Below, in pieces: positions 18,769 through 33,138 of a DNA stretch of 40,898 bases (the first letter of the stretch is position 1; each line of letters starts with the position of its first letter). Made by a program: the position numbers and the translations under genes. The notes under the pieces are model-generated. The model did no database searches. It saw only the letters and a program-made list of their open reading frames with translations, and had not been told where the DNA came from. The DNA comes from Myxococcales bacterium. Its GTDB lineage: Bacteria > Myxococcota_A > Polyangia > Polyangiales > Polyangiaceae. The stretch covers positions 1-40,898 of the forward strand of contig JAHFDV010000002.1 in NCBI GenBank assembly GCA_023248815.1. Direction: 5' to 3'.

Positions 18769-18866
18769 GCGTCGCGTTCGCGAGCCTGCCGTCGTCGCTC
18801 ACTCGGAGCGTTCCAAGACGGCGGCAGGCTTGTGAGCATGACGCTTACGAGAAGGATGAAACGACC

Positions 18867-19484
18867 ATGGCACACGATGTACTAAGCACGAACACCTGGG
18901 ACGCGGCGATCGCATTCGAACCGACGAACGAGCAGATCGCGATCGAGTGCGCGCGCTGGCTCTATTCAAAAGCCGGCGCTGATTGGGACGCGGGCGACCG
19001 CGTGACAGTGGGCGATCTTCGCGTGGCTCTTGGCTACGAGACGCGAATATTCCCGCTCCGTGCGGGGGCCGCGCTGGGACGCTTTGCAGAAGACTTCCGT
19101 CCCGTGCTTCCGGGCTGGCCGGTTTCGGACGAGGGCTCTCGGTTTCTGGTCCTTCATGCCTCGGTGATTCACAAAGGCGACAAGACGCGCGCATTCGTCG
19201 GGCAGCTCCTCGCCGAGGAAGCGCTACGTGCGATGGGCGTAGGTCGGTCGGCGCGTGCTTGCAGCATCCTGCGCGAAGTCGGACACCTGCTCGCCTGCCG
19301 TGGCGCTGGCATCGAGCTGAAGCGAGACGAAACGATTAGGGACGCCGAATACTGGAATCGGGTCATCGACCAAGACGAGGCGATCGCACGCAAGCGGCAG
19401 CCCGGCGTGTGGCGTCGAATCGATCGAGACGCACGACGTAGCGACAAGCGAGGTCGCCACAGCGAAGGCACGGAGCGCGCATGA
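18867..19484 (+). CDS. Hypothetical protein (element left-end cargo gene 1)
   Basis: The ATG at 18867 is preceded by GAAGGA. The 205-aa product has no motif I recognise. The stop overlaps the next start (ATGA). Confidence 0.6.
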   Translation: MAHDVLSTNTWDAAIAFEPTNEQIAIECARWLYSKAGADWDAGDRVTVGDLRVALGYETRIFPLRAGAALGRFAEDFRPVLPGWPVSDEGSRFLVLHASVIHKGDKTRAFVGQLLAEEALRAMGVGRSARACSILREVGHLLACRGAGIELKRDETIRDAEYWNRVIDQDEAIARKRQPGVWRRIDRDARRSDKRGRHSEGTERA

Positions 19485-19828
19485 TCGATCTCACGAGCAC
19501 CCATCACAAGGTGAAGAAGACAATCGAGGAGGTGCAGCGATCGGGGAAGCCCCTTCGCGAGCGGGCGAAGATGATTCGAGAAGCCCTCGCAGAGCTGCAT
19601 TGCCGCGCGCGCGGCGAAGACGTGCCGTTCACCGACGCGTCGATTCGTGCCCTCATGTGCGTCCTCGCTGTCGCGTGGAACTACACGGGCGAGGCCTCTC
19701 TTTTGGAGATCCTCGAACGCTGGCAGACGACAGCCGTCGACAAGATGCTCGATTCACTCGCCATCAATCCCGACGACGAGGCCGAGGTCCTTCGGTTCGT
19801 CGATGGCGGAAAGCGGCGGCGCAAATGA
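19481..19828 (+). CDS. Hypothetical protein (cargo gene 2)
   Basis: The 115-aa ORF is translationally coupled at both ends (ATGA overlaps at 19481 and 19825). Confidence 0.6.
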   Translation: MIDLTSTHHKVKKTIEEVQRSGKPLRERAKMIREALAELHCRARGEDVPFTDASIRALMCVLAVAWNYTGEASLLEILERWQTTAVDKMLDSLAINPDDEAEVLRFVDGGKRRRK

Positions 19829-20646
19829 GAGCTTCGCCAGCACTACAAAGCGCCATCAGCAAACCTCTGGAATCGAAGGACATTCCGCCGAAAGACAGGG
19901 CGAGAGGCATCCGAATTGCGCCATCGGCCGCGGTTCAGTCGTACGATGACATCGTGCCTCGCAGCGGAGAGAAGCCGGGTCGAAAGGGTCGACTTCCTCT
20001 CGCGGAACTCGCAGATCGCGAGCTCGTCGCTCAAGCCGTTCCGATTGTGTGGCGGGCGATGCGGGAGCTTCAAGAACTCCGCTCTACCGAAGGCGCTTCG
20101 GACGCGGCGCTCGCGCATCTCGATGAGATGAGGATCGTGCTCGAAGCCGTGCGGCTCTCTTTAGGACCGAAGCTCGCCGAGCGCACCGTTGTTAGCGTGG
20201 CAGATCTGTTGCGCGCAAAATGGGCGAGGGATGCGAAGTCTTCTCTCACGAGCAACGGGTGGTCGTTCGTGCACGGCAGACTGCCCGAAGAGGACGCCGC
20301 TGCGAAGGTAGTCAAGCTGCTGCCACCAATCCCAGGCACTGCGGTGCTCTCGCAAGAGGAAGCGACGTCGCGTGCTGAAATCGCGGTGACGTTTCTGTCG
20401 GAGTTCGTGCCGCCCTCGGTGAGGCGTCAACCTGGATGGTTCGAGAGCGTCGTGGGCAAGACTGAGAAGGCCATGGTGTCGGCGAAGGAGCGATACTTCT
20501 CCGTTTCCTCTGAGGAGCAGACACGACTCGCTCTCAATGCGCTTGGCCTGAAAGCATCGAACTTCTTTCGAACCAAGAAAAAGAAAGCCAGCAAGCTCAC
20601 ACTCCTGAGTGTGAGCCCACCTGCGTCGAAGCGCTCGCGACGCTAA
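19825..20646 (+). CDS. Hypothetical protein with a Lys/Arg-rich C-terminus (cargo gene 3)
   Basis: The internal ATG of tracked ORF 19600-20646 overlaps the preceding stop. The product is 273 aa, from MRASPALQSAISKPLE... to ...FFRTKKKKASKLTLLSVSPPASKRSRR. Confidence 0.6.
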   Translation: MRASPALQSAISKPLESKDIPPKDRARGIRIAPSAAVQSYDDIVPRSGEKPGRKGRLPLAELADRELVAQAVPIVWRAMRELQELRSTEGASDAALAHLDEMRIVLEAVRLSLGPKLAERTVVSVADLLRAKWARDAKSSLTSNGWSFVHGRLPEEDAAAKVVKLLPPIPGTAVLSQEEATSRAEIAVTFLSEFVPPSVRRQPGWFESVVGKTEKAMVSAKERYFSVSSEEQTRLALNALGLKASNFFRTKKKKASKLTLLSVSPPASKRSRR

Positions 20647-20661
20647 CGGCCTCATCGCATC

Positions 20662-20865
20662 GTGCTCATCATGAGCACCGAACAACGCACCCTCGCGCTG
20701 AAGCTTGCAGCCACTGCAGACGTCGATCCGCGGACGGCGTTGAAGGCACTCACGCGTGGCATCGCGTCGGTGCGCGGCCGCGCGGCTGAAAAGCTCAGCG
20801 AAGCGGCGCACTCCCTAGGCGCCCGATTTCCTTCCGACCCGCCCCCTCCGGGCGTCGCCGCCTAA
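20662..20865 (+). CDS. Small hypothetical protein (cargo gene 4)
   Basis: The 67-aa ORF (possibly starting at 20671, MSTEQR) has GC-rich third positions and is followed by a hairpin and T-run. Confidence 0.45.
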   Translation: MLIMSTEQRTLALKLAATADVDPRTALKALTRGIASVRGRAAEKLSEAAHSLGARFPSDPPPPGVAA

Positions 20866-20886
20866 CCATCAACCCGAGCGCGCACG

Positions 20887-20941
20887 CCGTTCGCACAAAA
20901 AAGCGAACGGCCCGGGGGTCGCATCCCGAGCCGCTCTTTTT
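20887..20941 (+). terminator. Terminator-like hairpins ending the left-end module
   Basis: A perfect 8-bp stem, CCGTTCGC (20887-20894) with GCGAACGG (20903-20910), is followed by a second imperfect GC hairpin and TTTTT (20937-20941). Confidence 0.5.
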
Positions 20942-20952
20942 GGAGTCCAGCA

Positions 20953-21288
20953 ATGAAGAATCGTAATCAGAAAGACGAAGAACGCAAGCCGAACGAAACG
21001 GGGAATGTGCATGCAATCGCGTCCGTGCTCCCGTTCACAATCTCGGCAGCCAACTGCGAGCTGCTAACGGGCCGGCCGTGGACGGCGACGCTCGCATGGG
21101 CGAAGCGGAAGGGACTTCCGATTGTCTCCACGCGGCCTCCGGCCATCCTCGCGCGGCCGTTGCTGAAGCTCCTCGAGGAGGAGGCGCAAGCGGGAGAGCT
21201 CGAGAGCGTGAACGAAGAGACGTCGACCTCGAGCGCGGACGACGTACTTGCGGCCGTCGGCCTTCGTCGCATGGGCGGTGCGAAGTGA
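20953..21288 (+). CDS. Putative DNA-binding protein (HTH-like); first gene of the long rightward operon
   Basis: The 111-aa product has an HTH-like segment, ISAANCELLTGRPWTATLAWAKRKGLPIV, and an acidic C-terminal part. Confidence 0.5.
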   Translation: MKNRNQKDEERKPNETGNVHAIASVLPFTISAANCELLTGRPWTATLAWAKRKGLPIVSTRPPAILARPLLKLLEEEAQAGELESVNEETSTSSADDVLAAVGLRRMGGAK

Positions 21289-21497
21289 GTCGTAACCGCG
21301 AAGGCGCCGTGGACAACTCAGAACAACTTCGCATTGCTGCGCGCTCCGTCGCCAACGTGCGGCTGCTTCACGAGGTCTCGTGCGGCGTAAGCGGCTGTCT
21401 CGCGCCAGCGCGTCAGTTTCGCGTGCCGCCGTCGCAGCCCTATGCCGTCGTGCCCGTCTGCTCGAAGCACAAGATTCACTGGGCGGAGGTGGCATGA
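21285..21497 (+). CDS. Small Cys/His protein (possible zinc-binding)
   Basis: The GTG start overlaps the preceding stop (GTGA). The 70-aa product reads ...VSCGVSGCLAPARQF...VVPVCSKHKIHW. Confidence 0.45.
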   Translation: MSRNREGAVDNSEQLRIAARSVANVRLLHEVSCGVSGCLAPARQFRVPPSQPYAVVPVCSKHKIHWAEVA

Positions 21498-22345
21498 GCT
21501 GGCTTCGCATCGACGATCGCGCGCACTCGCACATCAAGTTCCTTCGAGCCGGTCACGAGGCGACCGGCTTCTGGATGATGTGCGGCTCCTACGCGGCAGA
21601 TCACGAGCTAAACGGCGAGGTTCCTCGGGAGTTTGCCGAGCGTTTGGCGGGATCTCCTCAAGCTCTTCGCCGCCTTTCGTCAAAACTTATCGCCGTTGGT
21701 CTCTGGGAAGTTTCGGAGACCGGTTGGCGCATGCACGACTACCTCGCGTGGAACCCGTCACGCGAAGAACTCGAACGAAAACGAGTGGATGCTTCGGCAA
21801 AAGGGCGAAAGGGAGCGGGCGCACGATGGGGATCTCGTGATGCCACGGGCATAGCTGCGGGCAATGCCACGGGCATAGCGGCAAGCAATGCGGCCTGTAT
21901 GCCCCCGTCCCGTCCCGACCCGACCAGTCCCAGAGAGAGAGAAAAAGATCTCCCTTCGGGAGATGTAAAAACCCCCACCGCCAAGAGCGCGTCTTCGGCG
22001 AAGCGGGGCGAGCGCCTTCCCGAAAACTGGCAGGCATCGCCGGAGCTCCTCGCGAAGCTTCGTTCGAAGTTCAAGGTCGATGCGGCTGCAGCCGTTGACC
22101 GCTTCAAGAATCACTGGCTCGCTGCCAGCGGCCGCAACGCGACAAAGCTCGATTGGAATCGAGCGTTCGAAAACTGGGTCGACGAGGACACGAGCCGCGG
22201 GAAGCTCCCGGTGTGGATTGCGCCGCGCCCGCGCCTCGCAAAGGTCGCGGACGTTGGCTTCGCGCTCGACGGCGAAAAGCTCATCGACGCTCGAGCGCAA
22301 ATCACCGAACTCGAAAACAAGATCTCCGCTGGGGTGCTTCGATGA
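21494..22345 (+). CDS. Putative phage replication organizer/initiator (lambda O / DnaD-like role)
   Basis: The ATGA-coupled start gives an N-terminus MSWLRIDDRAHSHIKFLRAGHEATGFWMMCGSYAA. The C-terminus LPENWQASPELLAKL...VDRFKNHWLAASGRNATKLDWNRAFENWV resembles C-terminal motifs of phage replication proteins. It lies directly upstream of the primase and helicase genes. Confidence 0.5.
   Translation: MSWLRIDDRAHSHIKFLRAGHEATGFWMMCGSYAADHELNGEVPREFAERLAGSPQALRRLSSKLIAVGLWEVSETGWRMHDYLAWNPSREELERKRVDASAKGRKGAGARWGSRDATGIAAGNATGIAASNAACMPPSRPDPTSPREREKDLPSGDVKTPTAKSASSAKRGERLPENWQASPELLAKLRSKFKVDAAAAVDRFKNHWLAASGRNATKLDWNRAFENWVDEDTSRGKLPVWIAPRPRLAKVADVGFALDGEKLIDARAQITELENKISAGVLR
21841..21888 (+). 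repeat. Tandem 24-bp repeat inside the replication-organizer gene (candidate iterons)
   Basis: TGCCACGGGCATAGCTGCGGGCAA (21841-21864) is followed by TGCCACGGGCATAGCGGCAAGCAA (21865-21888). Together they encode ATGIAAGNATGIAASN. Confidence 0.7.
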
Positions 22346-23418
22346 GCGCCTCGACGAACCGACCCGACTACGCACGCGAGATTCGCTATGCGCTCACCGA
22401 CGCTCGAGCGCTTTGCGACGCCCTCGGGCTCCTCGCTCGCGGCAAGTGGTCGAAGCAGCCGCGGGGCGTAATCGTCGCGTGTCCCTGGCACGATGACCGC
22501 TCGCCGTCCTGCTCCGTCCGCGTCGCAAAGGACGGCACGATCTCGGCAAAGTGCTTCTCGTGCGACCAATCGGGCGACGCGCTCGCGCTCATCGCGCAGG
22601 TGCGAGGCATCTCGCTCACGCGTGAGTTTCCCGCCGTCCTCCTCGAGGCCGCCGAGCTTGCAGGCCTTCATGCGATCGCGCACGAACTTCGAACGGGCGC
22701 CCCGTCCGCCGAAGCTCGCCAGCCGGCGGCGCTTCCGCCAGTGTCCACCGAACCCGAGCGGGACTATCCCGCGCGCAGCGAAGTGCTTGCGCTCTGGGAG
22801 CGCGCAGGGGACGTGAGCGACGACCACGAGGCCGCGGCATGGCTGCGCTCTCGCGGCATGGATCGCTTCGCGGTGGCCGGCGCTGACGTCGTTCGGTGCC
22901 TTCCACCGAAGGCTCGTCTTCCGCGCTGGGCGAGCTACCGCGGCCGTTCGTGGGTGGAGACGGGGCATCGACTCGTCTTCGCGATGCGCGACGCCAGCGG
23001 GTCGCTGAGGAGCCTTCGCGCGTGTCGCATCGTCGAGGGCGACTCGCCGAAACGTCTACCGCCGGGCGGTCACCGGGCGAGCGGCCTCGTGCTCGCATGC
23101 GGTCTGGCGACGGCGATGCTTGCGGGGACGTACCGCCCTCGCCTCGTGGTGATCTCGGAGGGCGAGCCCGACTTCCTGACGTGGGCCTCGCGTCCCGGCA
23201 TGGCCCCGACGGCGCGGATCGGAATCGTTTCCGGCTCGTGGTCCGAATCCTTCGCCGCGCGCTTCCCGTCCGCCGCCTACGGCGCTCCCTGCACGGTCGT
23301 GATCCGAACCGACCGCGACGAAGCAGGAACCCGATACGCGAAAGAGATTGCTCCGTCGCTCCAGCAACGCGGCTGCCTCGTTCGTTGGACTCCTCGTGAG
23401 GTGCGCCATGCTGCATGA
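22342..23418 (+). CDS. DNA primase (CHC2 zinc finger plus TOPRIM)
   Basis: CPWHDDRSPSCSV...KCFSCDQSGDALALI is a CHC2 zinc finger. The TOPRIM-like motifs are VVISEGEPDFLT and VIRTDRDEAG. The start is ATGA-coupled. Confidence 0.8.
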   Translation: MSASTNRPDYAREIRYALTDARALCDALGLLARGKWSKQPRGVIVACPWHDDRSPSCSVRVAKDGTISAKCFSCDQSGDALALIAQVRGISLTREFPAVLLEAAELAGLHAIAHELRTGAPSAEARQPAALPPVSTEPERDYPARSEVLALWERAGDVSDDHEAAAWLRSRGMDRFAVAGADVVRCLPPKARLPRWASYRGRSWVETGHRLVFAMRDASGSLRSLRACRIVEGDSPKRLPPGGHRASGLVLACGLATAMLAGTYRPRLVVISEGEPDFLTWASRPGMAPTARIGIVSGSWSESFAARFPSAAYGAPCTVVIRTDRDEAGTRYAKEIAPSLQQRGCLVRWTPREVRHAA

Positions 23419-24931
23419 GACACGCGATGACAACGCGCTCCACGTCGCAGGAGAGCTCCCGATTGATCCGACCGCGGACGCCGTGCCGATGCCGCCGGAC
23501 ACGTCCGCGCGCCAAGCGACCCTGCAGCTCGTCACGGCGGACACGGACGCGCGCCGGCTCGCGACGCCGATCGATCACATCGCCGAAGCTCAGCTGCTTG
23601 GAATGATCCTTTGGGCGGGCAAGCACTCGCCCGGGGCCGTGACGATGGGGATGGTTCGAGACCTCGTCGATGCCGGGAAATTCGCGCTATCCGCGCATCA
23701 GACGATAGCTACCGCGATCGTTCAGCTTGAACAGTCGGGCGCCGGCGTCGATCCGGTGTCAGTTCATTCCGAGCTCGTACGCACGTCGATTGCTCGAACC
23801 GTGGGCGGAATCGACTACCTCGAGAAGCTCACGAGCTCCGTGGGCGTTCCAACCGAGAAGAGCCTGCGCGAGCACGCAGCGTCGATCCGTCAGATGTGGG
23901 ATCGACGCGGGCTGATGAAGCTCGGTCGGTTCTTCGAGGAGCGCGCGAAGAAGGCGAGCTCGAGCGCGGAGGCACTCACGGATGCGCGCCGTGCGTTCGA
24001 GGAGTACGCAACCAAAGTCGGCGCGACATCGACGGGTACCGTCTCGCTTGCGACATGCACCGCGACGGTGATCCGTCAGGTGCTCGAGGAGCGCAAAGAC
24101 GGCTTCCGAACGGGACTTGAAACCCTCGACGATCTGACGGGCGGTTTCTTTCCGGGAGAGTTCTCGATCCTCGGAGCGCGCACTTCGGTCGGCAAGAGCG
24201 CGTTCGCGCTCCAATGCGGCATAGGCACCGTCGATCACAATGAGAACGCAGCAGTGCTTTTCATCACCCTCGAGATGACTGGCATGGCGTTCTCTCGCCG
24301 CGCTCTGGCCGCCATGGCTGGCGTTCAAACGAACAAGCTGCGGCGCGGCCTGATCAATCAAAGCGAGTACTCGCGGCTGATGGCGGCGGCTCAGCAGATC
24401 GAAACGAAAGCCATCACGTTCGCCGAATCCCAAAGCCAGACGGTCGCGAGCATCGAGGCGCTCGCGAGAAGCCACGCGGAGGCTCTGGCGCGTAGCGGGA
24501 AGCGTCTCGCGCTCGTCGTGATCGATCACGTCGGGCTCGTGCAACCCGACGCCGCTTCGCAAAAGAAGAATCGCGAGCAGCAGGTAGCCGAGACGTCGCG
24601 CGCGTGCGTGCGCATGGCGGCCGAGCTGAACTGCGCCGTGCTCGGACTAGTGCAGATCAAGCGCGAAGCCGAGGGCCAGAACGGCAGCAAGATGCCGCGC
24701 CTTCACCATCTTCGCGAGAGCGGCGCGCTCGAGCAGGACGCACACAATGTGCTGATCCTTCACCGCGCACGCGACGCGAGTGGCGCGCGCTTCGAAGATG
24801 AGCCCGCCGTGCTCGCGCTCGCGAAGGCGCGCGACGACGAACCCGCGATCGTACGTCTTGGTTTCGAGTCAGCGAAGCAGCGCTTCTTCGACCTCCAATA
24901 CGAAGAACGATCGGTGGAGGTCGCGCCATGA
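23408..24931 (+). CDS. DnaB-family replicative helicase
   Basis: The N-terminal DnaB-like domain reads IAEAQLLGMIL...GIDYLEKL. The motifs are LDDLTGGFFPGEFSILGARTSVGKSAFAL (Walker A), LVVIDHVGL (Walker B) and QIKREAE. The start MLHETR at 23408 overlaps the primase stop by 11 nt. Confidence 0.85.
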   Translation: MLHETRDDNALHVAGELPIDPTADAVPMPPDTSARQATLQLVTADTDARRLATPIDHIAEAQLLGMILWAGKHSPGAVTMGMVRDLVDAGKFALSAHQTIATAIVQLEQSGAGVDPVSVHSELVRTSIARTVGGIDYLEKLTSSVGVPTEKSLREHAASIRQMWDRRGLMKLGRFFEERAKKASSSAEALTDARRAFEEYATKVGATSTGTVSLATCTATVIRQVLEERKDGFRTGLETLDDLTGGFFPGEFSILGARTSVGKSAFALQCGIGTVDHNENAAVLFITLEMTGMAFSRRALAAMAGVQTNKLRRGLINQSEYSRLMAAAQQIETKAITFAESQSQTVASIEALARSHAEALARSGKRLALVVIDHVGLVQPDAASQKKNREQQVAETSRACVRMAAELNCAVLGLVQIKREAEGQNGSKMPRLHHLRESGALEQDAHNVLILHRARDASGARFEDEPAVLALAKARDDEPAIVRLGFESAKQRFFDLQYEERSVEVAP

Positions 24932-25332
24932 AGCGCCACGGAAGACCCGTCGCGTCGTCGCGACGTCCAGCAACGGGCAACACTCCGAGCGAGCTTCGTC
25001 CCCTCGTACCGCTCGCAGTGAAAGCCCTAAGCGGCTCGCCGTTCGCCTCTCCCGCGAAATGGCCTCACGCTGTAGTGATCCTGCGCGCCGACGAGAGGAG
25101 CGTGTCGCATCGGAGCGCATTCGCCGCATGGCTCTCTGCCAACGATCTCGGAGCGCTCGCTAACGAGGCCCGCAGGCGCGTCGTGAGGCCCGGCGAGGCT
25201 CTCGTCTACGTCGATGTCGACACCTCCGAATTTGCGATCGCCCGCTTTTACGTCCTCGACGTCTTCGCCGCAGCGAGCGCGGAGATCGCACGATCTGAAA
25301 CCACGAACCACGAAAAGGAAAATCAGCCATGA
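24928..25332 (+). CDS. Hypothetical protein
   Basis: The 134-aa ORF is ATGA-coupled at both ends. Confidence 0.55.
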   Translation: MKRHGRPVASSRRPATGNTPSELRPLVPLAVKALSGSPFASPAKWPHAVVILRADERSVSHRSAFAAWLSANDLGALANEARRRVVRPGEALVYVDVDTSEFAIARFYVLDVFAAASAEIARSETTNHEKENQP

Positions 25333-26384
25333 ATAAGCAAATCGAAGAACTCACGATGAAAGCTGCGCAATCGAAAGCGGCGGAGAGCAAAGCGCACGAC
25401 GAACTAAGTCGCTGCGAGCGCGCTTACGTCGCCGACCGATCGGACGCTGCCTACAAGGCTCTTCAGAAGGCACGTCAAGACGTTGAGCGCGCATCGATGC
25501 ACGCAGAAGCCGATGCCACGACCCTCGCTGACGCGACCGAGGCCGCTGCGAACGACGAGAGAGCCCGAAAGATCTCGGAGCTTCGAGCGCGACGTGACGT
25601 GCGGCTGCTCGACGACACGATGCGAGTCGCGATCATCGATTCGACGTACCTCTTGAATCAGGTGCTGCGCACGCTCGATGAGCGCGGCAACGCGCTCAAG
25701 CTCGCGGACGCCGAACTAGGGCAGCTCGTGGCTCTCGAGAAGGAGTCACCGCGGGATCGAAAGGAAGACGCCTATAGCGAACTCCGCGATCTTATCGGCG
25801 CGTGCCAGTTCTTTGCGGAGCGCGGCCCAACGCACCTCGCTGCGAACCCTTCGCCTTCGAAGCCTGCATTGGAGCGCGTGCGCCGGCACCTCCCGGAGCT
25901 CGCGTCGTCGTATGACGACCGACGCGCCAGAGAAGCTCAAGAGCGCGAGCGGGTAGCGCTCGAGTTCGACGCAGCAGATCGCGCCCACAGAGGCGTGTGC
26001 ACCATTCACAATCGCGCTCCCTGGTCGACATTCGTTCGCGTCGATGGCGGTAGGACGATCGAGGGGGAGTTCATCGGACCTCGTCGCCTCGAGATCGATG
26101 GTGGTGAGGTCATCCGTCTTCGGGTCGGTCACTTTGCCGGAGACCGGGTCACGAATGCAGACGTCGAGCGCTTCCACTTGGACGAGATACTCACCGTCAC
26201 GCTCGAGCTTGGCGAGGACGCCTTCGCGCGGGGGAGCGTGGTGAGCACATTCACTGAGCGGCAGATCAACTGGAAGGAGAAGACGAGCGAGCGCGTGAAG
26301 GAGTTTGAGGATCGCGAGCGCCAACGACTATTCAACGCGACCCGAGCTCCGGGCCAAACCAGCCGAGACGGAGCGGAGGCCTGA
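25329..26384 (+). CDS. Hypothetical coiled-coil protein
   Basis: The 351-aa product has a long helical, charged N-terminal half and a beta-rich-looking C-terminal half. I recognise no motif. Confidence 0.6.
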   Translation: MNKQIEELTMKAAQSKAAESKAHDELSRCERAYVADRSDAAYKALQKARQDVERASMHAEADATTLADATEAAANDERARKISELRARRDVRLLDDTMRVAIIDSTYLLNQVLRTLDERGNALKLADAELGQLVALEKESPRDRKEDAYSELRDLIGACQFFAERGPTHLAANPSPSKPALERVRRHLPELASSYDDRRAREAQERERVALEFDAADRAHRGVCTIHNRAPWSTFVRVDGGRTIEGEFIGPRRLEIDGGEVIRLRVGHFAGDRVTNADVERFHLDEILTVTLELGEDAFARGSVVSTFTERQINWKEKTSERVKEFEDRERQRLFNATRAPGQTSRDGAEA

Positions 26385-26386
26385 CG

Positions 26387-26959
26387 ATGGCGAATCCGAT
26401 GAAGACGGCAATCTACCTGCCGAAGCTGCTTGCTGCCCTCGACGTGGCTACCCCTGAAGAAGCGGTCGGCGCGATCGAAGGGTTGAAGGCGCAGGCCGAG
26501 CACGTCGACGCGCTAACTCTCGAGCTTGCGAAGCTGAAAAGGTTCGCCGGTGAGAAAGACGTGAGCGAGATCCTGCGAGTGGGCGAGGAAGCGGGCAAGA
26601 TCACGCCCGCGAACAAGGCCTCGTTCCTGGAGATCTGCGGAGCGACCGTCGCGAAAATGGATGAGCGCGGCCGCGTCGTCGCTTCGAAGAGCAAGACGGG
26701 CCACGTCGACGTGCGTGGCGTGCCGCTCGAGACGCTTCCCGATGTCGCACGGCTAAGCACGCTCATAGCCAGCCTTCCCGTCATCGCACCACGAGAGCCG
26801 ACGAGGACGCGCGCGCCGGGCGAGAGCGGTTCACGTCTCAGCGCACGGCAAAAGGCCACCGTGAAGCGGCTTGGCGTCACCGAGGAGGATTACATCGCGC
26901 AATACAACGCGATCGTTGCAGGCCCGGAAGACCTCACCCCGATCGACACCGATCGGTAA
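26387..26959 (+). CDS. Phage scaffold-like protein (Mu gpI/Z-type motifs)
   Basis: LDVATPEEAVGAIEGLKAQ, the GKITPANKASFLE motif, and the C-terminal LSARQKATVKRLGVTEEDYIAQY are all patterns common in phage protease/scaffold proteins. The family is recalled, not searched. Confidence 0.55.
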   Translation: MANPMKTAIYLPKLLAALDVATPEEAVGAIEGLKAQAEHVDALTLELAKLKRFAGEKDVSEILRVGEEAGKITPANKASFLEICGATVAKMDERGRVVASKSKTGHVDVRGVPLETLPDVARLSTLIASLPVIAPREPTRTRAPGESGSRLSARQKATVKRLGVTEEDYIAQYNAIVAGPEDLTPIDTDR

Positions 26960-26987
26960 GCGCAACCAAGGGAGCGAAGGAGCACGC

Positions 26988-28835
26988 ATGGCAGACATCA
27001 ACTGGATCTTCGAGATGGTGGACAAGGTGAGCAAGCCGCTCGACGACGTCCAGAAGAAACTCGACGCGATGCCGAAGAGCGCCGACGCCGTCGAGAAGGC
27101 GATCGCGAAGGTAGAGCGCGCGATGATGCTCAAGAAGATCCAAGGGACGTCGGACCCTCTCCAGAAGACACTGCTCACGCTGAAGGCGCAGCAGAAGGCG
27201 CTGAAGGAGAACGGCGGCGTCCTCGGTTGGTTCAAGGACAAGCTCGGCGGCAATGGCGTAGCAGCGGGCGTCGCAGGCGCGGGCGTGCTGCTCTTTGCGA
27301 GCGCTGCGGGGTCGCTCATGCACAGCTTGCTCGGAGCTGGGGTGGGGATGGCGAAACTCGCCTTCGAGTCGTCGGAGGGCAAGCGCGCCATGATGGGCGC
27401 GCTCGAGGTGTTCGAAGGCAGCGGCACCGATGCCGCATTCGACACGCTTCAACAGATGGGCATCAAGGCCGGCGTCTCCGCTGACGCAACCGTCGAAGCT
27501 TTCACGCGCATGCGCACGGCCGGCTTCAAGGCGAAGGAAGCACAGGACATCATCGCCGCATCCTTCGACCTCTCGGCCAAGTTTGGCGGTGGAGAGAAGG
27601 GGCTCGAACACGCGACCAAGTTCCAAGACCTGATGGCGAAGGTTGACGTGCTCTCGAAGTCGGGAGCGAAAGACATGAAGGCCGCCGTTCTCGGCGCCGG
27701 CGTCAACATCGACGCTTTGCAGGCGTCGGTCGCGCAAAGAATGAAGGTGCCGGTCGATCAAGCGAAGACGTTGCTCGCTGAAGGAAAAGTCGGCGAGGCG
27801 ACCATGAAGAACGCGCTCATCGATGCTGTGCAAGACTCGCTCGACAATGGTGGAGCACTCGGTAGCAATGCTCTCAAGTTCGCGAAGGGCAGCATCGTCG
27901 CGCAGGTCACGAGTCTGAAGGGGGTCTTCGACAACATTTTCGAAGACGTCAATCTCGGCCCATTCGCCAGCGTGCTCGGAAGGATCACCGACGAGCTTTC
28001 TCGCAAAGGCGGGCCCGCCGACAAACTCAAGGCCATGGCGGGTGGCGCTTTCGAAATGGTCGGAGCTTTCACTTCCGGAATCGACATCGCCGGGGTCATC
28101 GGAACCGTTGTCGACTGGATCGGCAAAGGCGGCGACCTCATCGGGGAACTAGTTTCGGGCTTCAACGAAGTCTTCAACTCCGTCATGATCGACACGATCG
28201 ATCAGATGTCCGGCTCTACGCAGGGTATGGGGATGTCGTTCGAAGACGTGAAGATGGTTATCCACGCGACCGGGCAAGTGCTCGGGACGATGGTGACGAT
28301 TGGCTACGCCGTCGGCAAGGCCGTCATCGGCGTCGTCGAGACGATCGCCGAAGCGGTGATGGGGCTCGGCATGGCGCTCGGTTGGATTCTCGACAAGATG
28401 GGACTCATCGGCGAGGAAGCCCCGAAGTTTGGCGGTGCGTTCAAGGATGGCCTCGACCAGGGCACGAACGCTATCAAGGGCGGCAAGTTCGCGGACACCG
28501 TTTACGACGAGTACGCCGTTCAGCCTGGCGCGAAAATGGAAGTCGCTTCCCCGTCGAAGGTGACGACGCGCATCGGTGGTCACATTGCCGAAGGCTACAA
28601 CGTCGGCTTCGACGACAAGATCGGCACGGGCGACGTGCAAAGCTTCCTCTCGAGCGACTCGGTCGCTTTCGATTCATCCGGCTACTCCGATAGCGGGAGC
28701 GGCATCCGCGATGTCAACGTCACGTTCGGAGACATCTACGTCAACGGCGACAGCGCAAGCGCGATCGCGAACGACCTCCGCGCGCAAGTTCGCGTCGAGG
28801 TGATTGGGCTCTTCGAAGAGATGGGACAAGGGTAA
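26988..28835 (+). CDS. Tape-measure-like protein
   Basis: The ATG is preceded by GGAGCGAAGGAG. The 615-aa product is largely helical with Gly/Ala-rich hydrophobic stretches (GVAAGVAGAGVLLFASAAG; IAGVIGTVVDWIG; GLGMALGWIL). It also has a TMP-core-like segment, LQQMGIKAGVSADATVEAFTRMRTAGFKAKEAQDII. Confidence 0.5.
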   Translation: MADINWIFEMVDKVSKPLDDVQKKLDAMPKSADAVEKAIAKVERAMMLKKIQGTSDPLQKTLLTLKAQQKALKENGGVLGWFKDKLGGNGVAAGVAGAGVLLFASAAGSLMHSLLGAGVGMAKLAFESSEGKRAMMGALEVFEGSGTDAAFDTLQQMGIKAGVSADATVEAFTRMRTAGFKAKEAQDIIAASFDLSAKFGGGEKGLEHATKFQDLMAKVDVLSKSGAKDMKAAVLGAGVNIDALQASVAQRMKVPVDQAKTLLAEGKVGEATMKNALIDAVQDSLDNGGALGSNALKFAKGSIVAQVTSLKGVFDNIFEDVNLGPFASVLGRITDELSRKGGPADKLKAMAGGAFEMVGAFTSGIDIAGVIGTVVDWIGKGGDLIGELVSGFNEVFNSVMIDTIDQMSGSTQGMGMSFEDVKMVIHATGQVLGTMVTIGYAVGKAVIGVVETIAEAVMGLGMALGWILDKMGLIGEEAPKFGGAFKDGLDQGTNAIKGGKFADTVYDEYAVQPGAKMEVASPSKVTTRIGGHIAEGYNVGFDDKIGTGDVQSFLSSDSVAFDSSGYSDSGSGIRDVNVTFGDIYVNGDSASAIANDLRAQVRVEVIGLFEEMGQG

Positions 28836-29251
28836 TGATGAGTGCAGAGGACACCAACGCTCCTACGACGCTGACCTCGGACGAGCTCGATGCGGTGGTG
28901 CGATACCTATCCAGCCTCGGCACGCCGGCGCCTTGCCCTGTCTGCAGCGCGAACGCGTGGTTCGTGTTGAGAGAGCTCGTGTGCCAGCCGATGGTGAAGC
29001 CCAACTCAACGCTTCTCCTGGATTGGTGCGTTCCGTTCGTCACCCTGACCTGCAACGCTTGCTCGTTCGCGAGGCAGTTCGCATGGCAAACGCTGCGCGA
29101 GCGTGTCTTCGGATCATCGCTCACCCATACCCCCCCGCCAAAATTACAGCGGAAGCGCAAAATGGCCGACGGCGGCCGCCTTCGGCTCAAAACGCATTCT
29201 GAACGAAACTTTGCATATGCGAACCGTCATCCAGTGGAGGTGAAACCGTGA
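28835..29251 (+). CDS. Small protein with two CxxC pairs (zinc-ribbon-like)
   Basis: The start overlaps the stop as TAATG. The CxxC pairs are CPVCSANAW... and ...LTCNACSF. The C-terminus is basic. Confidence 0.5.
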   Translation: MMSAEDTNAPTTLTSDELDAVVRYLSSLGTPAPCPVCSANAWFVLRELVCQPMVKPNSTLLLDWCVPFVTLTCNACSFARQFAWQTLRERVFGSSLTHTPPPKLQRKRKMADGGRLRLKTHSERNFAYANRHPVEVKP

Positions 29252-29688
29252 AACTGACGCCCGAAATTCTCGAAGAGCTCTTGAGGCTCCGCGCATCCGG
29301 CAAAACGCAAAACGATCTGCAGAAGCACGTCCTCAAAAAGCACGGCATCAAGGTGAACCAGTCGTCGCTCTCTCGCTGCCTCGCGAAGCATCGTGGCGAG
29401 CGCGCCGAAATTTCGCGCGCCGTGGTCCAAGCATATGCGGAGAAGTCGATCCCGGCAGATCTCGAAGCGATGGATCGCGTGCAGGAGAAAAACCTGCAAC
29501 TCCTCGACGAAGCGCAGGAGGCCGCGCGGAAGGTTCCATCGCTGGCGAATGTCGACAAGGTAGTCAAGCTCACCGCGGCCGTCGCGCGCGCAGACGAGAC
29601 GAAACGTAAGGCACTCGGTCTCGATGACCCGACCGAGTCGATCAACTACCAGGGCCTTGCAGATCTCGTGGGCCTCGCACTCGAATGA
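29248..29688 (+). CDS. HTH plus coiled-coil protein with small-terminase-like architecture (speculative)
   Basis: The GTG start is GTGA-coupled. The N-terminal HTH is LTPEILEELLRLRASGKTQNDLQKHVLKKHGIKVNQSSLSRCL, followed by a helical region. Confidence 0.45.
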   Translation: MKLTPEILEELLRLRASGKTQNDLQKHVLKKHGIKVNQSSLSRCLAKHRGERAEISRAVVQAYAEKSIPADLEAMDRVQEKNLQLLDEAQEAARKVPSLANVDKVVKLTAAVARADETKRKALGLDDPTESINYQGLADLVGLALE

Positions 29689-29930
29689 GAGCGAACACGC
29701 TTCCCGCGATCGCCGCGCTGCTTCTGCATAAGCCGCATCCCGCCGAGGATATTTCGGACGAGCTCGCCGTGCTCGAGAACCTGCACGCGCTGTTCTTCGC
29801 GCTTGAGGTGCGGACGCTCGACGAGGCGGTCGGCATGGCCGCCGGCCTCGTGGCGAAGGGCAAGCTCTACGACACCGAGCACGAACTCTTCACCGCTCTA
29901 TTCAAGAACCAACAACCGAAAGAAGAATGA
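29685..29930 (+). CDS. Small protein carrying the scaffold-like LxVxTxxEAxGxxxGL motif
   Basis: ALEVRTLDEAVGMAAGLVAKGKLYDTEHE (nt 29799-29852 and a little beyond) is paralogous to motifs in the 26387 and 29927 genes. The ORF is ATGA-coupled. Confidence 0.5.
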   Translation: MRANTLPAIAALLLHKPHPAEDISDELAVLENLHALFFALEVRTLDEAVGMAAGLVAKGKLYDTEHELFTALFKNQQPKEE

Positions 29931-30484
29931 GGCACCAAATGACCCGACCAATGATGACCAGCCAATTCCGATCAGGCTCGCTCGACGAACAGCTCGAGCG
30001 AATCAGGAACCGAAGTAAGGCCGCTGCTTCCGACAACGGCTCGGGCGCGAAGCCTGAGGAGCTGCAGAAACTCTTCGACACTCTCGGTGTGAAAACGATC
30101 GCCGAGGCGATCGGCGCCGCGGCGGGACTCGTCGTGAAGGGCGCCAAGTACGACGAGGAGCACGCGGACGAGGAGGATCCGCCGACGGGTGAACAGGCGG
30201 CGTCCCACCGTCCCCATGCTCACGCGAGCAGCTCGTCGACAGGTGCTCGGCTCACCCTTCGAGAGCGTGAGATCGCTGCTCGTCACGGCGTGTCGGCCGA
30301 AGACTTCCTGGCGCAAAAGAGAGTATTCACGGGGGAGCCGCCTGTGGCGTCTTCACCGCAGCGTGCGAGCGGGTCGCCGACGAAGATCACCCAACGCGGG
30401 CGCCAGCTTGCCGCGCTGAGAGGAGTAAGCGAGGAAGAGTGGCTTGCCGAACGGCAGAAGGTCGTGACGGGTCACTTCGGGTGA
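29927..30484 (+). CDS. Scaffold-motif protein (paralogous motifs)
   Basis: It carries TLGVKTIAEAIGAAAGLVVKGAKYDEEHA (nt 30080-30133 and a little beyond). It also has two copies of the xTxRxxxxAxxxGVSxEDF/WLAxxQ motif (LTLREREIAARHGVSAEDFLAQKR and ITQRGRQLAALRGVSEEEWLAERQ). Confidence 0.55.
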   Translation: MRHQMTRPMMTSQFRSGSLDEQLERIRNRSKAAASDNGSGAKPEELQKLFDTLGVKTIAEAIGAAAGLVVKGAKYDEEHADEEDPPTGEQAASHRPHAHASSSSTGARLTLREREIAARHGVSAEDFLAQKRVFTGEPPVASSPQRASGSPTKITQRGRQLAALRGVSEEEWLAERQKVVTGHFG

Positions 30485-30831
30485 CGGAGCTCGGCCCCGT
30501 CCTCACCGTCGCCGAGCTCGCGACGAAAGCAGGCTGGAACTATCAACGGATGTGGCGGCACCTCCGCGCGCTCAACGATGAACGCGGAGGTACGCTGCTT
30601 CGCAACACGTCGCGCTCGAAGAAGCGAGCTCGCTGGACGGCGAGCCTCGCCGCGCTTCGCTCGGCGTCTCCCGAGTGGTTTGGCGCGGGCGGAGCGCTTA
30701 CTGACCAGGAAAGCTATGAAGATCTCGACGCGCGCGTGCGCCGACTCGAGCACACGCTCGAAGCGCTGATTCGGAAGGACTTAAGGGAACGGGCGTCAGC
30801 GCCCCTTCAAGTAGCGCGCCGCGCGAGCTAA
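30481..30831 (+). CDS. HTH DNA-binding protein (excisionase/MerR-like N-terminus)
   Basis: The GTG start is GTGA-coupled. The sequence is VTELGPVLTVAELATKAGWNYQRMWRHLRAL followed by a coiled-coil tail. Confidence 0.5.
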   Translation: MTELGPVLTVAELATKAGWNYQRMWRHLRALNDERGGTLLRNTSRSKKRARWTASLAALRSASPEWFGAGGALTDQESYEDLDARVRRLEHTLEALIRKDLRERASAPLQVARRAS

Positions 30832-30878
30832 GCCGCAAGCGAAGCGAAACTTCGCACTCGTGCGCTACCAATCAACGC

Positions 30879-31067
30879 ATGAGGGTCTGGATAGGTGCGA
30901 GCGGAAGCAAGCCGCCGCGAATCTTCGCGTCAGAAAGCTCGGCGAAGAAGGCCGGTCAGTTCGAGGCTTACTTTAATAGCTACCCCGCCGAACTCACGCG
31001 TGACGTCTTTGAGCAGCTCTGCGAAGCAATGCGAGAGCCCGGCGACGGGCACCAGGAAGAACCTTAG
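30879..31067 (+). CDS. Small hypothetical protein
   Basis: This 62-aa ORF is the last gene of the rightward block. Its stop overlaps the stop of the convergent minus-strand ORF. Confidence 0.4.
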   Translation: MRVWIGASGSKPPRIFASESSAKKAGQFEAYFNSYPAELTRDVFEQLCEAMREPGDGHQEEP

Positions 31068-31333
31068 GAAGGACGGCTGTGATCAGCGCGCTCGAGCTGC
31101 TCTTCGGCTGCGCGCATTGTGCGGAGCGCGAGCACGATCGCTTCTCGTGCGGCGGAGGTCCTGCCGTGGTCGTACTCGACGAGTAGAGTGCTCAGTTCGT
31201 TGGAGGCAGAGGCGAGGGTGTCGCGAAGGGATTGCATATGATGCGCATCGACCATTCCTCGCGCTGGGTTGCTTCCCGAAGCACGAGGAGTCCGCCCCGT
31301 CGCCAAACTGCGCGACGGGGCTTCCTCACTCAT
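31064..31333 (-). CDS. Hypothetical protein
   Basis: The MSEEAPSRS... start at 31333 lies inside tracked ORF 31064-31381. It begins 5 nt after the stop of the small upstream ORF. Confidence 0.4.
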   Translation of the reverse strand: MSEEAPSRSLATGRTPRASGSNPARGMVDAHHMQSLRDTLASASNELSTLLVEYDHGRTSAAREAIVLALRTMRAAEEQLERADHSRPS

Positions 31334-31337
31334 CACC

Positions 31338-31466
31338 TCACGCGCCGAATGGCCACGCGCGGTATCCGTAGTCCGCAGCAAACATCAGCTTTCCAGTGCG
31401 GTAGTGGCGATAAACCGTACAAAAACCACGACCTGCCTTGGAACGCTTTTTATTTTTGCGTTTCAT
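31338..31466 (-). CDS. Very small basic protein (42 aa), hypothetical
   Basis: The minus-strand translation is MKRKNKKRSKAGRGFCTVYRHYRTGKLMFAADYGYRAWPFGA*. It is below the ORF-track size cutoff. An AAAGGG sequence lies upstream. Its third-position GC is lower than that of its neighbours. Confidence 0.3.
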   Translation of the reverse strand: MKRKNKKRSKAGRGFCTVYRHYRTGKLMFAADYGYRAWPFGA

Positions 31467-31597
31467 GGGGGTACACCCTTTCCGCTGCTCGAGAGCTGAG
31501 CGCTTGACTAAGGGGGTCCGACGGATGCACGCTATCTGTCCCTGCAGAGTGCGCGTCGGCTTACGTCAATACGTTGGCCCGGCAGCATTAGGCCAAT

Positions 31598-31640
31598 CGA
31601 ACGTCACAGGCGCCAACCCGTGACGTTCGAAACTTTTTGT
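31598..31640 (+). terminator. Perfect 10-bp inverted repeat followed by a T-run (terminator or operator)
   Basis: CGAACGTCAC (31598-31607), a 12-nt loop, then GTGACGTTCG (31620-31629), followed by AAACTTTTTGT. TTACGTCA direct repeats flank it at 31561-31568 and 31648-31655. Confidence 0.45.
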
Positions 31641-31652
31641 CTTGGGATTACG

Positions 31653-32270
31653 TCACTCGTACCTCCCAAGAAGTTTCAGTCTCTTCAGATGCGAGCGCAT
31701 CATGCTCCCGCTTACCTCGAAGCGGTCTGCCAGGGCTTGGACGGTGTTCTCGCCAGACGCGAGAATGGCCGCACGAGGCGCCAGAAAATTCCCGGCGAAA
31801 GCCCACGCCTGCCATTCCGGGTCTCGGTACGGCGGGATTTCGTCCCTTCGCATCTTGCGATTCAGGAGGGTCTCAGCGTTCGGGAGACTCATGCGTCTCC
31901 TAAGTATAGGTACGTGCAAAATGGCGTGACCAAGCTCGTGCGCGAGCGTCGCACGAGCGCGATTTGCAGCGCGCCCCCCATCGAGCAGCTCGTGCCAAAG
32001 CGACTGCTGAATGAGGATGTGCGTCTCGTCCTTCTCGGTCGCGATGGGCACGGTAGCGGCCAGCCGGTCTTCCAACTCGACCGCGCTCGCCGGATAGACG
32101 TGAATACCGTACGCGGGAAGCTGCTCGACCAATGAGACGAGGTCAATCGCGCAAGACGCCTCTGCGCCTCCGTCGTAAAATAGGCCGCGAGTGCTGGCGC
32201 CGATGGCCTCAATGCCGGCCGTCGGAACGGGCGGCATCATAGGAACGCGCTCGGTGCCAAAGTCACTCAT
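31653..32270 (-). CDS. ImmA/IrrE-family zinc metallopeptidase
   Basis: The HEXXH motif lies in ATLAHELGHAILH. The MSDFG start at 32270 overlaps the stop of the upstream XRE gene by 8 nt. This is the typical XRE-ImmA pair of mobile elements. Confidence 0.8.
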   Translation of the reverse strand: MSDFGTERVPMMPPVPTAGIEAIGASTRGLFYDGGAEASCAIDLVSLVEQLPAYGIHVYPASAVELEDRLAATVPIATEKDETHILIQQSLWHELLDGGRAANRARATLAHELGHAILHVPILRRRMSLPNAETLLNRKMRRDEIPPYRDPEWQAWAFAGNFLAPRAAILASGENTVQALADRFEVSGSMMRSHLKRLKLLGRYE

Positions 32271-32646
32271 CGTCGTCCTCACTGTTCAGAATAGAGAGTA
32301 GGGCGTCGAGTTCGGCGGGCCGCAGGTCACGGCGGTCTATGCGACGCGCAAGTGCGAGGCCCAAGTCTAAATATGCGCGCGGCGCGTCCGTAAGCTCAAG
32401 CTGCACGCCTCTGAGTGGCGCCATTTCGCGTTCGATCTCGTCCTCAGAGAAGCCCGGGATGATCTCGGCGAGCTGCTTCCAGCGCTCGCGTTTCAGGGAT
32501 GTGCGCACACCGCGTTCAACTTCGGCGATCAAGACATGCGAGACGCTCATTGCATCGGCCACTTCGCGAAGACTCATTCCAGCCGCGATGCGTCGTTTGC
32601 GCAGGTATCTGCCGAAAACGCTGGGTTCCGGGGTCTTGTTAACCAT
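32263..32646 (-). CDS. XRE-family HTH repressor (cI/ImmR-like)
   Basis: The HTH is FGRYLRKRRIAAGMSLREVADAMSVSHVLIAEVERG. The start is uncertain: MVNKTPE at 32646 is preferred, but the ORF stays open to the GTG at 32739. Confidence 0.8.
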   Translation of the reverse strand: MVNKTPEPSVFGRYLRKRRIAAGMSLREVADAMSVSHVLIAEVERGVRTSLKRERWKQLAEIIPGFSEDEIEREMAPLRGVQLELTDAPRAYLDLGLALARRIDRRDLRPAELDALLSILNSEDDDE

Positions 32647-32787
32647 CTGGTTCACAGGAGAACACATCACCTTGTTATCGTCCAAAAATTTGGCCATTTT
32701 TGAAATATGAAAATGAATTTTGGTAGGACCATTCAGCACTTGAACGTTTGAGCAGTGACTTGGACGAAGGTTTAGTTACTTTCGACC

Positions 32788-32841
32788 TGGACAACGTCGT
32801 AGCTCGTTGTATATACATTGGGCGACTGTAGTACGTCGTAC
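32788..32841 (+). promoter_or_regulatory. Candidate rightward promoter with overlapping palindromic operators in the AT-rich divergent region
   Basis: TGGACA (32788-32793), a 16-nt spacer, then TATATA (32810-32815). ACAACG-N8-CGTTGT (32791-32810) sits between them. Also present are the perfect palindrome TGTATATACA (32808-32817), GTACG-T-CGTAC (32831-32841), and the direct 8-mer ACGTCGTA at 32793-32800 and 32833-32840. Confidence 0.35.
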
Positions 32842-32858
32842 ATACGAAAGGCGCCGTC

Positions 32859-33038: not shown

Positions 33039-33138
33039 AAATGAAAGCTCCCGCGCTGCGCTAACAGCCGGGAGCGTGGTCCGACCTAGGAAAGAGATCG
33101 AACAATGCAAACCCTAACTCTCGCACTCGAGGTGCGCC

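Follow-up and report, generated by a model that had tools for sequence, protein, structure and literature searches.

A satellite-like element with small terminase, scaffold and tape measure genes, integrated in a tRNA-Ser gene of a Myxococcales bacterium

Results

A 16-kb integrated element with phage assembly genes and no recognisable virion core

We analysed a 40,898-nt stretch at the start of contig JAHFDV010000002.1 of the Myxococcales bacterium assembly GCA_023248815.1 (hereafter the window, whose positions are used throughout) and found an integrated element of 16,026 bp at 18445-34531, inserted in a tRNA-Ser gene. It combines an integrase, a repressor switch and a replication module with genes for a small terminase subunit (TerS), three proteins with phage scaffold motifs and a tape measure protein (TMP). 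We lean, if only by a little, towards reading it as an integrative, self-replicating, satellite-like hijacker that would derive from myoviruses with Mu-type heads and depend on such a phage for its virion. An earlier interpretation made from the letters alone (hereafter the sequence-only reading) had already proposed a phage satellite here, and we report below which of its elements stood and which had to be amended. The assembly genes on which the proposal turns are the following.

26988-28835, plus strand: tape measure protein, full length, 615 aa (homologues in the tail-module slot; profile match to 6v8i)
29248-29688, plus strand: small terminase subunit, 146 aa, with an N-terminal helix-turn-helix (HTH) and a helical region (homology and synteny)
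26387-26959, plus strand: scaffold-only protein, 190 aa (Mu-like_Pro, positions 272-329 of 330, 1e-7; phrog_328, positions 182-335 of 339, 5e-10)
29685-29930, plus strand: 81-aa protein with an N-terminal scaffold motif (motif alignment with the 190-aa protein)
29927-30484, plus strand: scaffold-like paralogue of 185 (or 181) aa (one N-terminal and two C-terminal motifs)

The 615-aa protein had no match in Pfam or PHROGs. Six homologues were found among 5.8e9 proteins (31-43% identity over the full length) and three further loci by contig scans, so that identities span 31-46%, the 46% value belonging to a 221-residue fragment; one relative lies in a Myxococcales metagenome-assembled genome (MAG; JAAFHV010000147). 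In a survey of neighbourhoods that covered the loci other than L010 and the 2.8-kb contig of P0005, every homologue with a readable neighbourhood occupies the tape measure slot of a myovirus tail module. On four contigs (L001, L003, L007 and L009) this conserved module runs from an HTH protein through the large terminase (TerL), Portal_Mu, an S78 protease/scaffold, a gpT-type capsid protein and Gp36 to the sheath (DUF2586), tube, chaperones, TMP and baseplate J, and the shorter contigs L002, L008 and L011 carry the corresponding tail or baseplate portion of the same module. A profile of the family matched the solved TMP of 80alpha (6v8i) at 8e-11. The element's TMP retains 116 of the 157 columns (74%) that are invariant in six phage TMPs, against an overall identity of 34-45%, which points to purifying selection on this gene.

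The 146-aa HTH protein is assigned as TerS because it is homologous and syntenic with the genes that precede TerL in two of these phages: it is 51% identical to L001:79-591 and matches L003:144-602 at 2e-9, and both lie directly upstream of a large terminase gene (phrog_2, 3e-33 and 1e-27). The protein stops 8-26 residues short of its phage homologues and is without their acidic, proline-rich C-terminal tail. The 190-aa protein corresponds to what follows the protease in a Mu gpI-type protease/scaffold, with 31% identity to the C-terminal 40% (approximately residues 190-318 of 327) of the L001 protease/scaffold. The 185-aa paralogue matches the 190-aa protein (BLASTP, 1e-6) as well as the protein Rctr16k_21 of Virus Rctr16k (phmmer, 4.6e-6), and the protease domain is missing from all three scaffold-motif proteins. 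Scans of IMG/VR with TerS and scaffold, of the JGI metagenomes with TerS, and tblastn of TerS and scaffold against GenBank phages gave no matches.

Genes for a capsid, portal, large terminase, tail tube, sheath, baseplate, holin or lysin were not found among the called open reading frames (ORFs) by Pfam, PHROGs or NCBIfam matches, and a tblastn comparison of 1219 ORFs from 15 related loci with all six frames of the window revealed no remnant or pseudogene of lost genes, recovering only the replication genes, scaffold, TMP, TerS, XRE repressor and integrase. From the approximately 25 morphogenesis genes of its phage relatives the element retains only TerS, the three scaffold-domain proteins and the TMP, and what coding capacity is left does not suffice for a virion. 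The structural check suggested along with the sequence-only reading was carried out with AlphaFold2 (AF2) models and Foldseek for the two largest ORFans (351 and 273 aa); both were modelled as helical and neither resembled an HK97-like fold, the models being of low confidence, which speaks weakly against capsid genes hidden among them.

In these respects the sequence-only reading agrees with the database and synteny evidence. It had reported that capsid, portal, TerL, tail tube and sheath, baseplate, holin and endolysin genes could not be seen, and Pfam, PHROGs, NCBIfam and tblastn likewise yielded none. Its tape-measure-like 615-aa protein is corroborated by the synteny of the homologues together with the 6v8i profile match of 8e-11, its HTH plus coiled-coil protein of small-terminase architecture by the 51% identity to the L001 gene that adjoins TerL, and its three proteins with scaffold motifs by the motifs that the 81-aa and 185-aa proteins share with the 190-aa protein. 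The integrase, RHH protein and XRE plus ImmA pair that it named were all recovered with Pfam and PHROGs (the RHH matches being weak), as were its replication organizer, CHC2-TOPRIM primase and DnaB; the intact att sites and int it mentioned are consistent with the 61-nt repeat (87%) at tRNA-Ser and the Phage_integrase and phrog_1 matches, and the uninterrupted translational coupling with 4-nt overlaps at 12 of 16 gene junctions.

Insertion site, integrase and control region

18445-18505, no strand: attL, displaced 3' piece of the host tRNA-Ser gene (repeat partner of 34471-34531)
34472-34559, minus strand: tRNA-Ser(GGA) containing attR at 34471-34531 (ARAGORN; Rfam tRNA, 57.9 bits; repeat)
33139-34689, plus strand: tyrosine integrase, 516 aa, whose frame crosses attR into the tRNA gene (Phage_integrase, 2e-15; phrog_1, 1e-25)
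18506-18768, plus strand: left-arm sequence that would extend the int frame in the excised circle (in silico attR-attL join)
32859-33038, plus strand: RHH-like 59-aa protein, candidate excisionase or regulator (weak matches: NikA-like, 0.002; phrog_4113, 5e-5)
32263-32739, minus strand: XRE-family repressor (HTH_31, 4e-10; HTH_3, 8e-8)
31653-32282, minus strand: ImmA/IrrE-type metalloprotease (Peptidase_M78, 6e-8)

The element is of the tRNA-integrated type. A repeat search followed by alignment delimited it by 61-nt direct repeats at 18445-18505 and 34471-34531 with 87% identity and a spacing of 16,026 bp, of which the right one makes up the 3' part of tRNA-Ser(GGA), the only tRNA gene in the window. 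The G+C content of the window is approximately 62%, and the proteins encoded in the flanks are host-like: a LysR regulator, a GAF histidine kinase, a YkuD transpeptidase and a patatin, as well as isopropylmalate dehydrogenase, hydrolases, a sulfatase and a response regulator. A second prophage was not found in the window, the flank genes being ordinary host genes. We also considered an 11,872-bp Logan contig from SRR14366766 (L004) as a second copy of the element and rejected it, since it is a public assembly 100% identical to window positions 19778-31649, with both ends inside the element and away from the att sites; L004 therefore carries no comparative information.

When attR and attL were joined in silico, the int frame stayed open and encoded 551 aa instead of the 516 aa of the integrated form, with a different, helical C-terminus, so that the integrase would end differently once the element is integrated. 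An int frame that crosses its att site resembles Mx8 intP/intX, as an analogous arrangement only: homology to the Mx8-type integrase was not supported, there being no Myxococcus phage among the integrase matches. The integrase is 46.5% identical to that of Virus Rctr16k, and the RHH-like protein 41% identical to Rctr16k_06. A (TGGGGG)n run at 34428-34449 encodes a poly-glycine stretch of the integrase just ahead of the att core.

The divergent region between XRE and RHH-int (32672-32840) has a lower G+C content and contains candidate operators, namely an AT-rich inverted repeat at 32672-32713, a palindrome at 32799-32826 and 15-nt direct repeats at 32787 and 32826. Directly past the immA stop, a near-perfect 14-nt inverted repeat at 31597-31630 (TCGAACGTCACAGG / CCCGTGACGTTCGA) lies within a zone of approximately 800 bp where two convergent transcription units meet.

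Replication module

21494-22345, plus strand: replication initiation protein (phrog_2447, 8e-36; weak DnaT-like C-terminus)
22342-23418, plus strand: DnaG-type primase with CHC2 zinc ribbon and Toprim (CHC2, 2e-8; Toprim_2, 0.0016; phrog_47, 4e-12)
23408-24931, plus strand: DnaB-family replicative helicase (DnaB_C, 4e-55; DnaB N-terminal domain, 4e-11)
21840-21891, no strand: 24-nt tandem repeat of 2.2 copies within the initiator gene, candidate origin iterons

In local alignments of approximately 125-250 residues, the initiator shares approximately 31-33% identity with the product of the gene that precedes the primase in L012, L015 and L017. The primase has at least 357 homologues, with a best identity of 62%. 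The 24-nt repeat is built of 12-nt sub-repeats and is followed by a (CCCGT)x5.6 tract, all within 21840-21931 in the linker region of the initiator. Origin iterons inside the initiator gene are known from lambda O.

Origin from a lineage of Mu-head myoviruses

Relatives of the initiator-primase-DnaB (Rep-primase-DnaB) backbone were found on contigs of 50-190 kb, with primase identities of approximately 51-55% and DnaB identities of 36-40%. These contigs have the appearance of complete temperate phages, with genes for a large terminase and a Mu-type portal a few kb downstream of the backbone; the loci also carry methylases and, in 3 of the 5, RusA. Between L013/L014 and the phages with homologues of the assembly genes (L001 and L003), the large terminases share 40% identity. 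On sequence comparison, the source of both backbone and assembly genes is one poorly sampled group of temperate Mu-head myoviruses with P2-type baseplates, known from metagenomes (L001, L003, L007, L009, L010, L012-L016 and the MAG contig JAAFHV010000147), to which the element shows identities of 51% for TerS, 31% for the scaffold, 31-46% for the TMP, 51-55% for the primase and 36-40% for DnaB. This common source of the backbone and of TerS, scaffold and TMP marks the element as phage-derived and, judging from these homologies, as a reduced derivative of that lineage.

Unlike the element, these myoviruses encode TerL, portal, protease, capsid, sheath, tube, chaperones, baseplate and lysis genes, and their gene order is conserved among them, whereas that of the element differs. 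The phage order is TerS-TerL-portal-protease/scaffold-capsid, and further on TMP-baseplate; that of the element is scaffold-TMP-138aa-TerS-scaffold-scaffold. Of the module of a complete Mu-head phage, the element has no more than TerS, the scaffold domain and the TMP, arranged in another order. The element is not a simple or evident deletion product, because TerS follows the TMP, there are three scaffold copies and ORFans such as the 351-aa protein, missing from all relatives, are interleaved with the retained genes.

Two candidate close relatives were examined and set aside. The contigs with the nearest primases (L017/L018, 59-62% identical) have nothing beyond Rep-primase-DnaB in common with the element, and their short length precludes classification. 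Virus Rctr16k (L005, KX853514.1, 16.7 kb), which comes from a methane-oxidising enrichment culture, was considered as a sister mini-element and rejected, since the record includes a terminase and covers only part of a phage genome; what it has in common with the element is limited to the integrase (46.5%), the RHH-like protein (41%) and, in Rctr16k_21, the C-terminal motif of the scaffold, and its annotated 'tail protein' matches the element's TMP weakly. All 11 element proteins checked (10 and the TMP) are the sole members of their 90%-identity clusters.

Operon layout and ORFan genes

Genes were called from GC-frame statistics and from existing calls on two public copies of the contig (ENA and Logan). 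A plus-strand series at 18867-31067 is followed by the minus-strand ImmA/XRE pair and then by the plus-strand RHH-int pair. Neighbouring genes of the plus-strand series overlap by 4 nt at 12 of the 16 junctions, and many of their starts are preceded by Shine-Dalgarno-like motifs. The features of this series other than the assembly and replication genes are listed here, with GC3 denoting the G+C content at third codon positions.

18867-19484, plus strand: 205-aa left-arm protein (GC-frame plot; 4-nt overlap with the next gene; no PHROGs, PADLOC or NCBIfam match)
19481-19828, plus strand: 115-aa left-arm protein (GC3 0.78; two sub-cutoff Pfam matches, E 0.05-0.09; no PHROGs or PADLOC match)
19825-20646, plus strand: 273-aa left-arm protein (called in the Logan contig; no Pfam, PHROGs, PADLOC or NCBIfam match)
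20590-20936, no strand: approximately 300 bp of intergenic DNA between two strong hairpins (terminator-like stems; putative operon boundary or regulatory region)
20953-21288, plus strand: 111-aa protein, first gene of the long operon (GC3 0.77; HTH-like by eye; no Pfam, PHROGs, PADLOC or NCBIfam match)
21285-21497, plus strand: 70-aa Cys/His-containing protein (called in the Logan and ENA contigs; no PADLOC or NCBIfam match)
24928-25332, plus strand: 134-aa protein (sub-cutoff Pfam DUF4880 only, E 0.015; no PHROGs, PADLOC or NCBIfam match)
25329-26384, plus strand: 351-aa ORFan with a long N-terminal helical hairpin (coding-like GC3; Shine-Dalgarno-like motif; directly upstream of the scaffold gene)
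28835-29251, plus strand: 138-aa Cys-rich protein (weak phrog_4293 match, 8e-5)
30481-30831, plus strand: 116-aa HTH-like protein with a coiled coil (weak HalX match; called in the ENA and Logan contigs)
30879-31067, plus strand: 62-aa ORF of doubtful status at the operon end (GC3 0.69; no Pfam, PHROGs or PADLOC match)

The sequence-only reading had placed its satellite genes at 20953-31067, and the genes it listed lie at or near the positions given there; the element extends further, with three more genes in the left arm. The unassigned ORFs that it counted (134, 351, 138 and 81 aa) have accordingly to be joined by those of 205, 115 and 273 aa, and its conclusion that their total is too small for a virion holds with these included.

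The only sizeable gap of the plus-strand series, between the three left-arm genes and the replication and assembly operon, is bracketed by the hairpins at 20590-20621 (14 pairs) and 20905-20936 (12 pairs), which are GC-rich with T-runs on the minus strand. For the 273-aa protein, single-sequence AF2 gave an all-alpha model (pLDDT 44). The 351-aa protein found only itself among 5.8e9 proteins (word-indexed search) and among 1.84e9 representatives (full HMMER scan). Its single-sequence AF2 model (overall pLDDT 55) has a confident helical hairpin at residues 1-117, the rest being of low confidence, and Foldseek searches with it against BFVD and PDB gave no match at E<=1e-3, only generic coiled-coil matches. 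The 134-aa protein was tried as a capsid fragment and rejected, its 34-residue similarity to a capsid protein being at noise level.

Discussion

Phage satellites parasitize the assembly of helper phages, and the gene content of the element can be arranged into such a life cycle. In response to DNA damage or to a signal from the helper, ImmA would cleave the XRE repressor, and loss of XRE would de-repress the divergent RHH-int promoter, upon which the element would excise. Excision would join int to the left arm, placing the long plus-strand operon downstream of int across attP. The element would then replicate on its own, possibly starting at the 24-nt repeats inside the initiator gene, and its TerS would steer the large terminase of the helper to element DNA. 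The scaffold paralogues keep a C-terminal motif common to phage scaffolds (the presumed capsid-binding end); in competition with the scaffold of the helper, they could shift assembly towards a small capsid fitting 16 kb, and the TMP may take the place of that of the helper in chimeric tails, by analogy with the Vibrio PLEs. A length of 16 kb amounts to approximately a third of a genome of 45-50 kb, as in the pairs P2/P4 and 80alpha/SaPI1.

For the satellite reading speak the intact state of all genes, the presence of att sites, tRNA gene and integrase, and the backing of TerS, scaffold and TMP by homology and synteny; the gene classes are those that known satellites use, TerS and scaffold mimics in SaPIs and PICIs and TMPs in PLEs and EPIPs. 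The general hallmarks of satellites are also seen: small size, integration, an integrase and att sites (16,026 bp, 61-nt repeats, tyrosine integrase), replication and regulation modules of its own (initiator, primase, DnaB, XRE and ImmA), and no genes for an autonomous virion and lysis, the last of these with the caveat of several ORFans and low-confidence models. The satellite proposal of the sequence-only reading thus remains the best available explanation of the gene inventory and of the missing virion core, with three qualifications: larger relatives exist in part, a TMP is not a classical satellite hallmark, and neither a helper nor a sister element was found. On the first of these, the sequence-only reading had argued that larger versions of the same prophage in closely related genomes would speak for a deletion derivative. 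Full-size phages with a related backbone do exist, but only at 36-55% protein identity (primase, DnaB) and not as close genomes, and the element is not an evident deletion derivative of them.

Several observations weigh against the satellite reading. A helper phage was identified neither in the window, whose flanks hold ordinary host genes, nor elsewhere, and no sister element was found. Excision, packaging and a pac or cos site are without evidence, and the steps of the mechanism outlined above are inferred. Beside the TMP, neither a chaperone nor a hub gene was recognised by Pfam, PHROGs or comparison with the related phages, unlike in PLEs. The C-terminal tail missing from the element's TerS could be needed for binding of the large terminase. 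The structure models of the ORFan proteins are of low confidence. Backbone and assembly genes come from one phage lineage, as would also be seen in a decayed prophage. Moreover, a survey of satellites found tail components consistently present only in phages (PMC10085698).

The best-surviving alternative, which we consider rather unlikely, is a cryptic remnant: a Mu-head myovirus at tRNA-Ser that lost most morphogenesis and lysis genes by deletions and rearrangement, and whose surviving TerS, scaffold fragments and TMP would be leftovers without a role in transfer. The singleton status of the element suits such a history, as does the occurrence of the Rep-primase-DnaB relatives in phages of full size that encode a large terminase and a Mu-type portal, the TerL of these phages being 40% identical to that of the phages with the TerS, scaffold and TMP homologues. 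A TMP without chaperone, tube and sheath looks like a leftover, and the 190-aa protein is exactly the 3' part of the protease/scaffold gene, for which an upstream deletion would suffice given an internal start. Decay would, however, require at least 4-5 independent deletions and a transposition of TerS to a place downstream of the TMP, each event leaving behind an intact ORF, a Shine-Dalgarno-like motif (TerS, scaffold, TMP) and a 4-nt overlap or short gap, yet tblastn detected no pseudogene or fragment of a lost gene in any frame. Nor would it readily account for three diverged scaffold paralogues, for the interleaving of genes missing from all relatives, or for the retention of just those classes that known satellites use. 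Cryptic prophages such as e14 and Rac of E. coli are small and integrated and keep an integrase and a few phage genes; such remnants typically keep the ancestral order, with truncated genes or pseudogenes. The element differs from them in having no detectable remnants and in that its retained genes are reordered, duplicated and tightly coupled.

Less probable still is an island for interference with assembly, in which TerS, scaffold and TMP would act as dominant-negative decoys that poison packaging, capsid and tail assembly of related phages, the element itself being unpackaged and mobile by integration and excision only, or immobile. A TerS without its C-terminal tail is what a non-productive decoy might look like, several scaffold paralogues are truncated, and defences acting on virion or tail assembly are documented on prophages and PICIs (PMC11364771; PMC10884400; Rta, PMC12987554). 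On the other hand, a full replication module and an own TerS would be costly for defence and better fit amplification and packaging, and none of the unknown proteins had a PADLOC match. Interference and satellite transfer are, moreover, not mutually exclusive. That the element is a very small autonomous tailed phage with an unrecognisably divergent capsid, portal and terminase among the 351-, 273-, 205-, 138- and 134-aa proteins without detectable homologue is highly improbable, as the unassigned capacity is approximately 1,500 aa (tally of ORF lengths) in small proteins of which none fits TerL or a typical portal, the AF2 models are helical and not HK97-like, and the source lineage has conventional, readily recognised capsid, portal and terminase genes.

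As a satellite, the element could not be placed in a described family. It resembles SaPIs and PICIs (e.g., SaPI1, with TerS-S and the CpmA/CpmB scaffold mimics) in its size (~15-16 kb in these), integrase, repressor switch, replication module, own TerS and scaffold-like proteins, and in having no TerL, portal or capsid gene. It differs from PICIs in an initiator with DnaG-type primase and DnaB instead of Pri-Rep, in ImmA/XRE instead of Stl or AlpA, in the co-orientation of int with the main operon, which departs from the int-stl | str-xis-rep-packaging layout, and in its full-length TMP, whereas PICIs and SaPIs are defined as having no tail genes; the general Pfam and PHROGs scans detected none of the PICI core families (AlpA/Stl, Pri-Rep, PICI TerS, Cpm/Ppi/Rpp). 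The capsid, portal, protease and connector genes of cf-PICIs were not found either, the scaffold proteins being without a protease domain. For P4-like satellites, sid, psu, delta, epsilon, alpA and the alpha primase-helicase had no Pfam or PHROGs match, and in place of the P4 alpha protein the element has separate DnaG-type and DnaB-type genes.

Satellite-encoded TMPs have been reported only in 2025-26, from PLEs (PMC12987554) and EPIPs (PMC12822802). PLEs require their own TMP for transduction and form chimeric tails with it (PMC12987554). The element shares with Vibrio PLEs a TMP of its own that is moderately diverged from the helper type (31-46% identity to phage TMPs in the case of the element), whereas PLEs have a tmp-tac-hub arrangement, TcaP and a lytic helper, come from another host and are probably unrelated in sequence. 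The EPIP satellites of Mycolicibacterium encode TerS, a scaffold protein and a TMP in approximately 11 kb (PMC12822802), and EPIPs and the element alike combine these with an integrase and without a full virion set. EPIPs have a serine integrase and reported head-tail adaptors and capsid, whereas the element has a tyrosine integrase, and no adaptor, stopper or capsid gene was found in it; tblastn of TMP, TerS and scaffold against GenBank phages, where EPIP records would be expected, gave one weak Thermus match or nothing. If the satellite is real, its closest working likeness would be a SaPI or PICI with a PLE-like TMP, making it a new family within a known kind.

Most known satellites come from Proteobacteria and Firmicutes, with recent additions from Actinobacteria, and our literature search found no paper describing a phage satellite in Myxococcota. 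For the element, the assignment to Myxococcota finds support in the one TMP relative that lies in a Myxococcales MAG. It is conceivable, rather than probable, that the element represents the first satellite family of this phylum, reduced from the lineage of its own helper and carrying TerS, protease-less scaffolds and a TMP in one operon together with the 351-aa protein as a candidate assembly modifier. Taken as a joint claim, which we make only tentatively, TerS would redirect packaging, the scaffolds would redirect capsid size and the TMP would build chimeric tails. If it is only a prophage remnant, the element is ordinary. If it does function as a satellite, it would show with unusual clarity the origin of a satellite from the helper's own lineage, because backbone and hijack genes trace to the same phage group, and TMP-based chimeric tails, so far shown only for Vibrio PLEs, would extend to a temperate myovirus system in another phylum.

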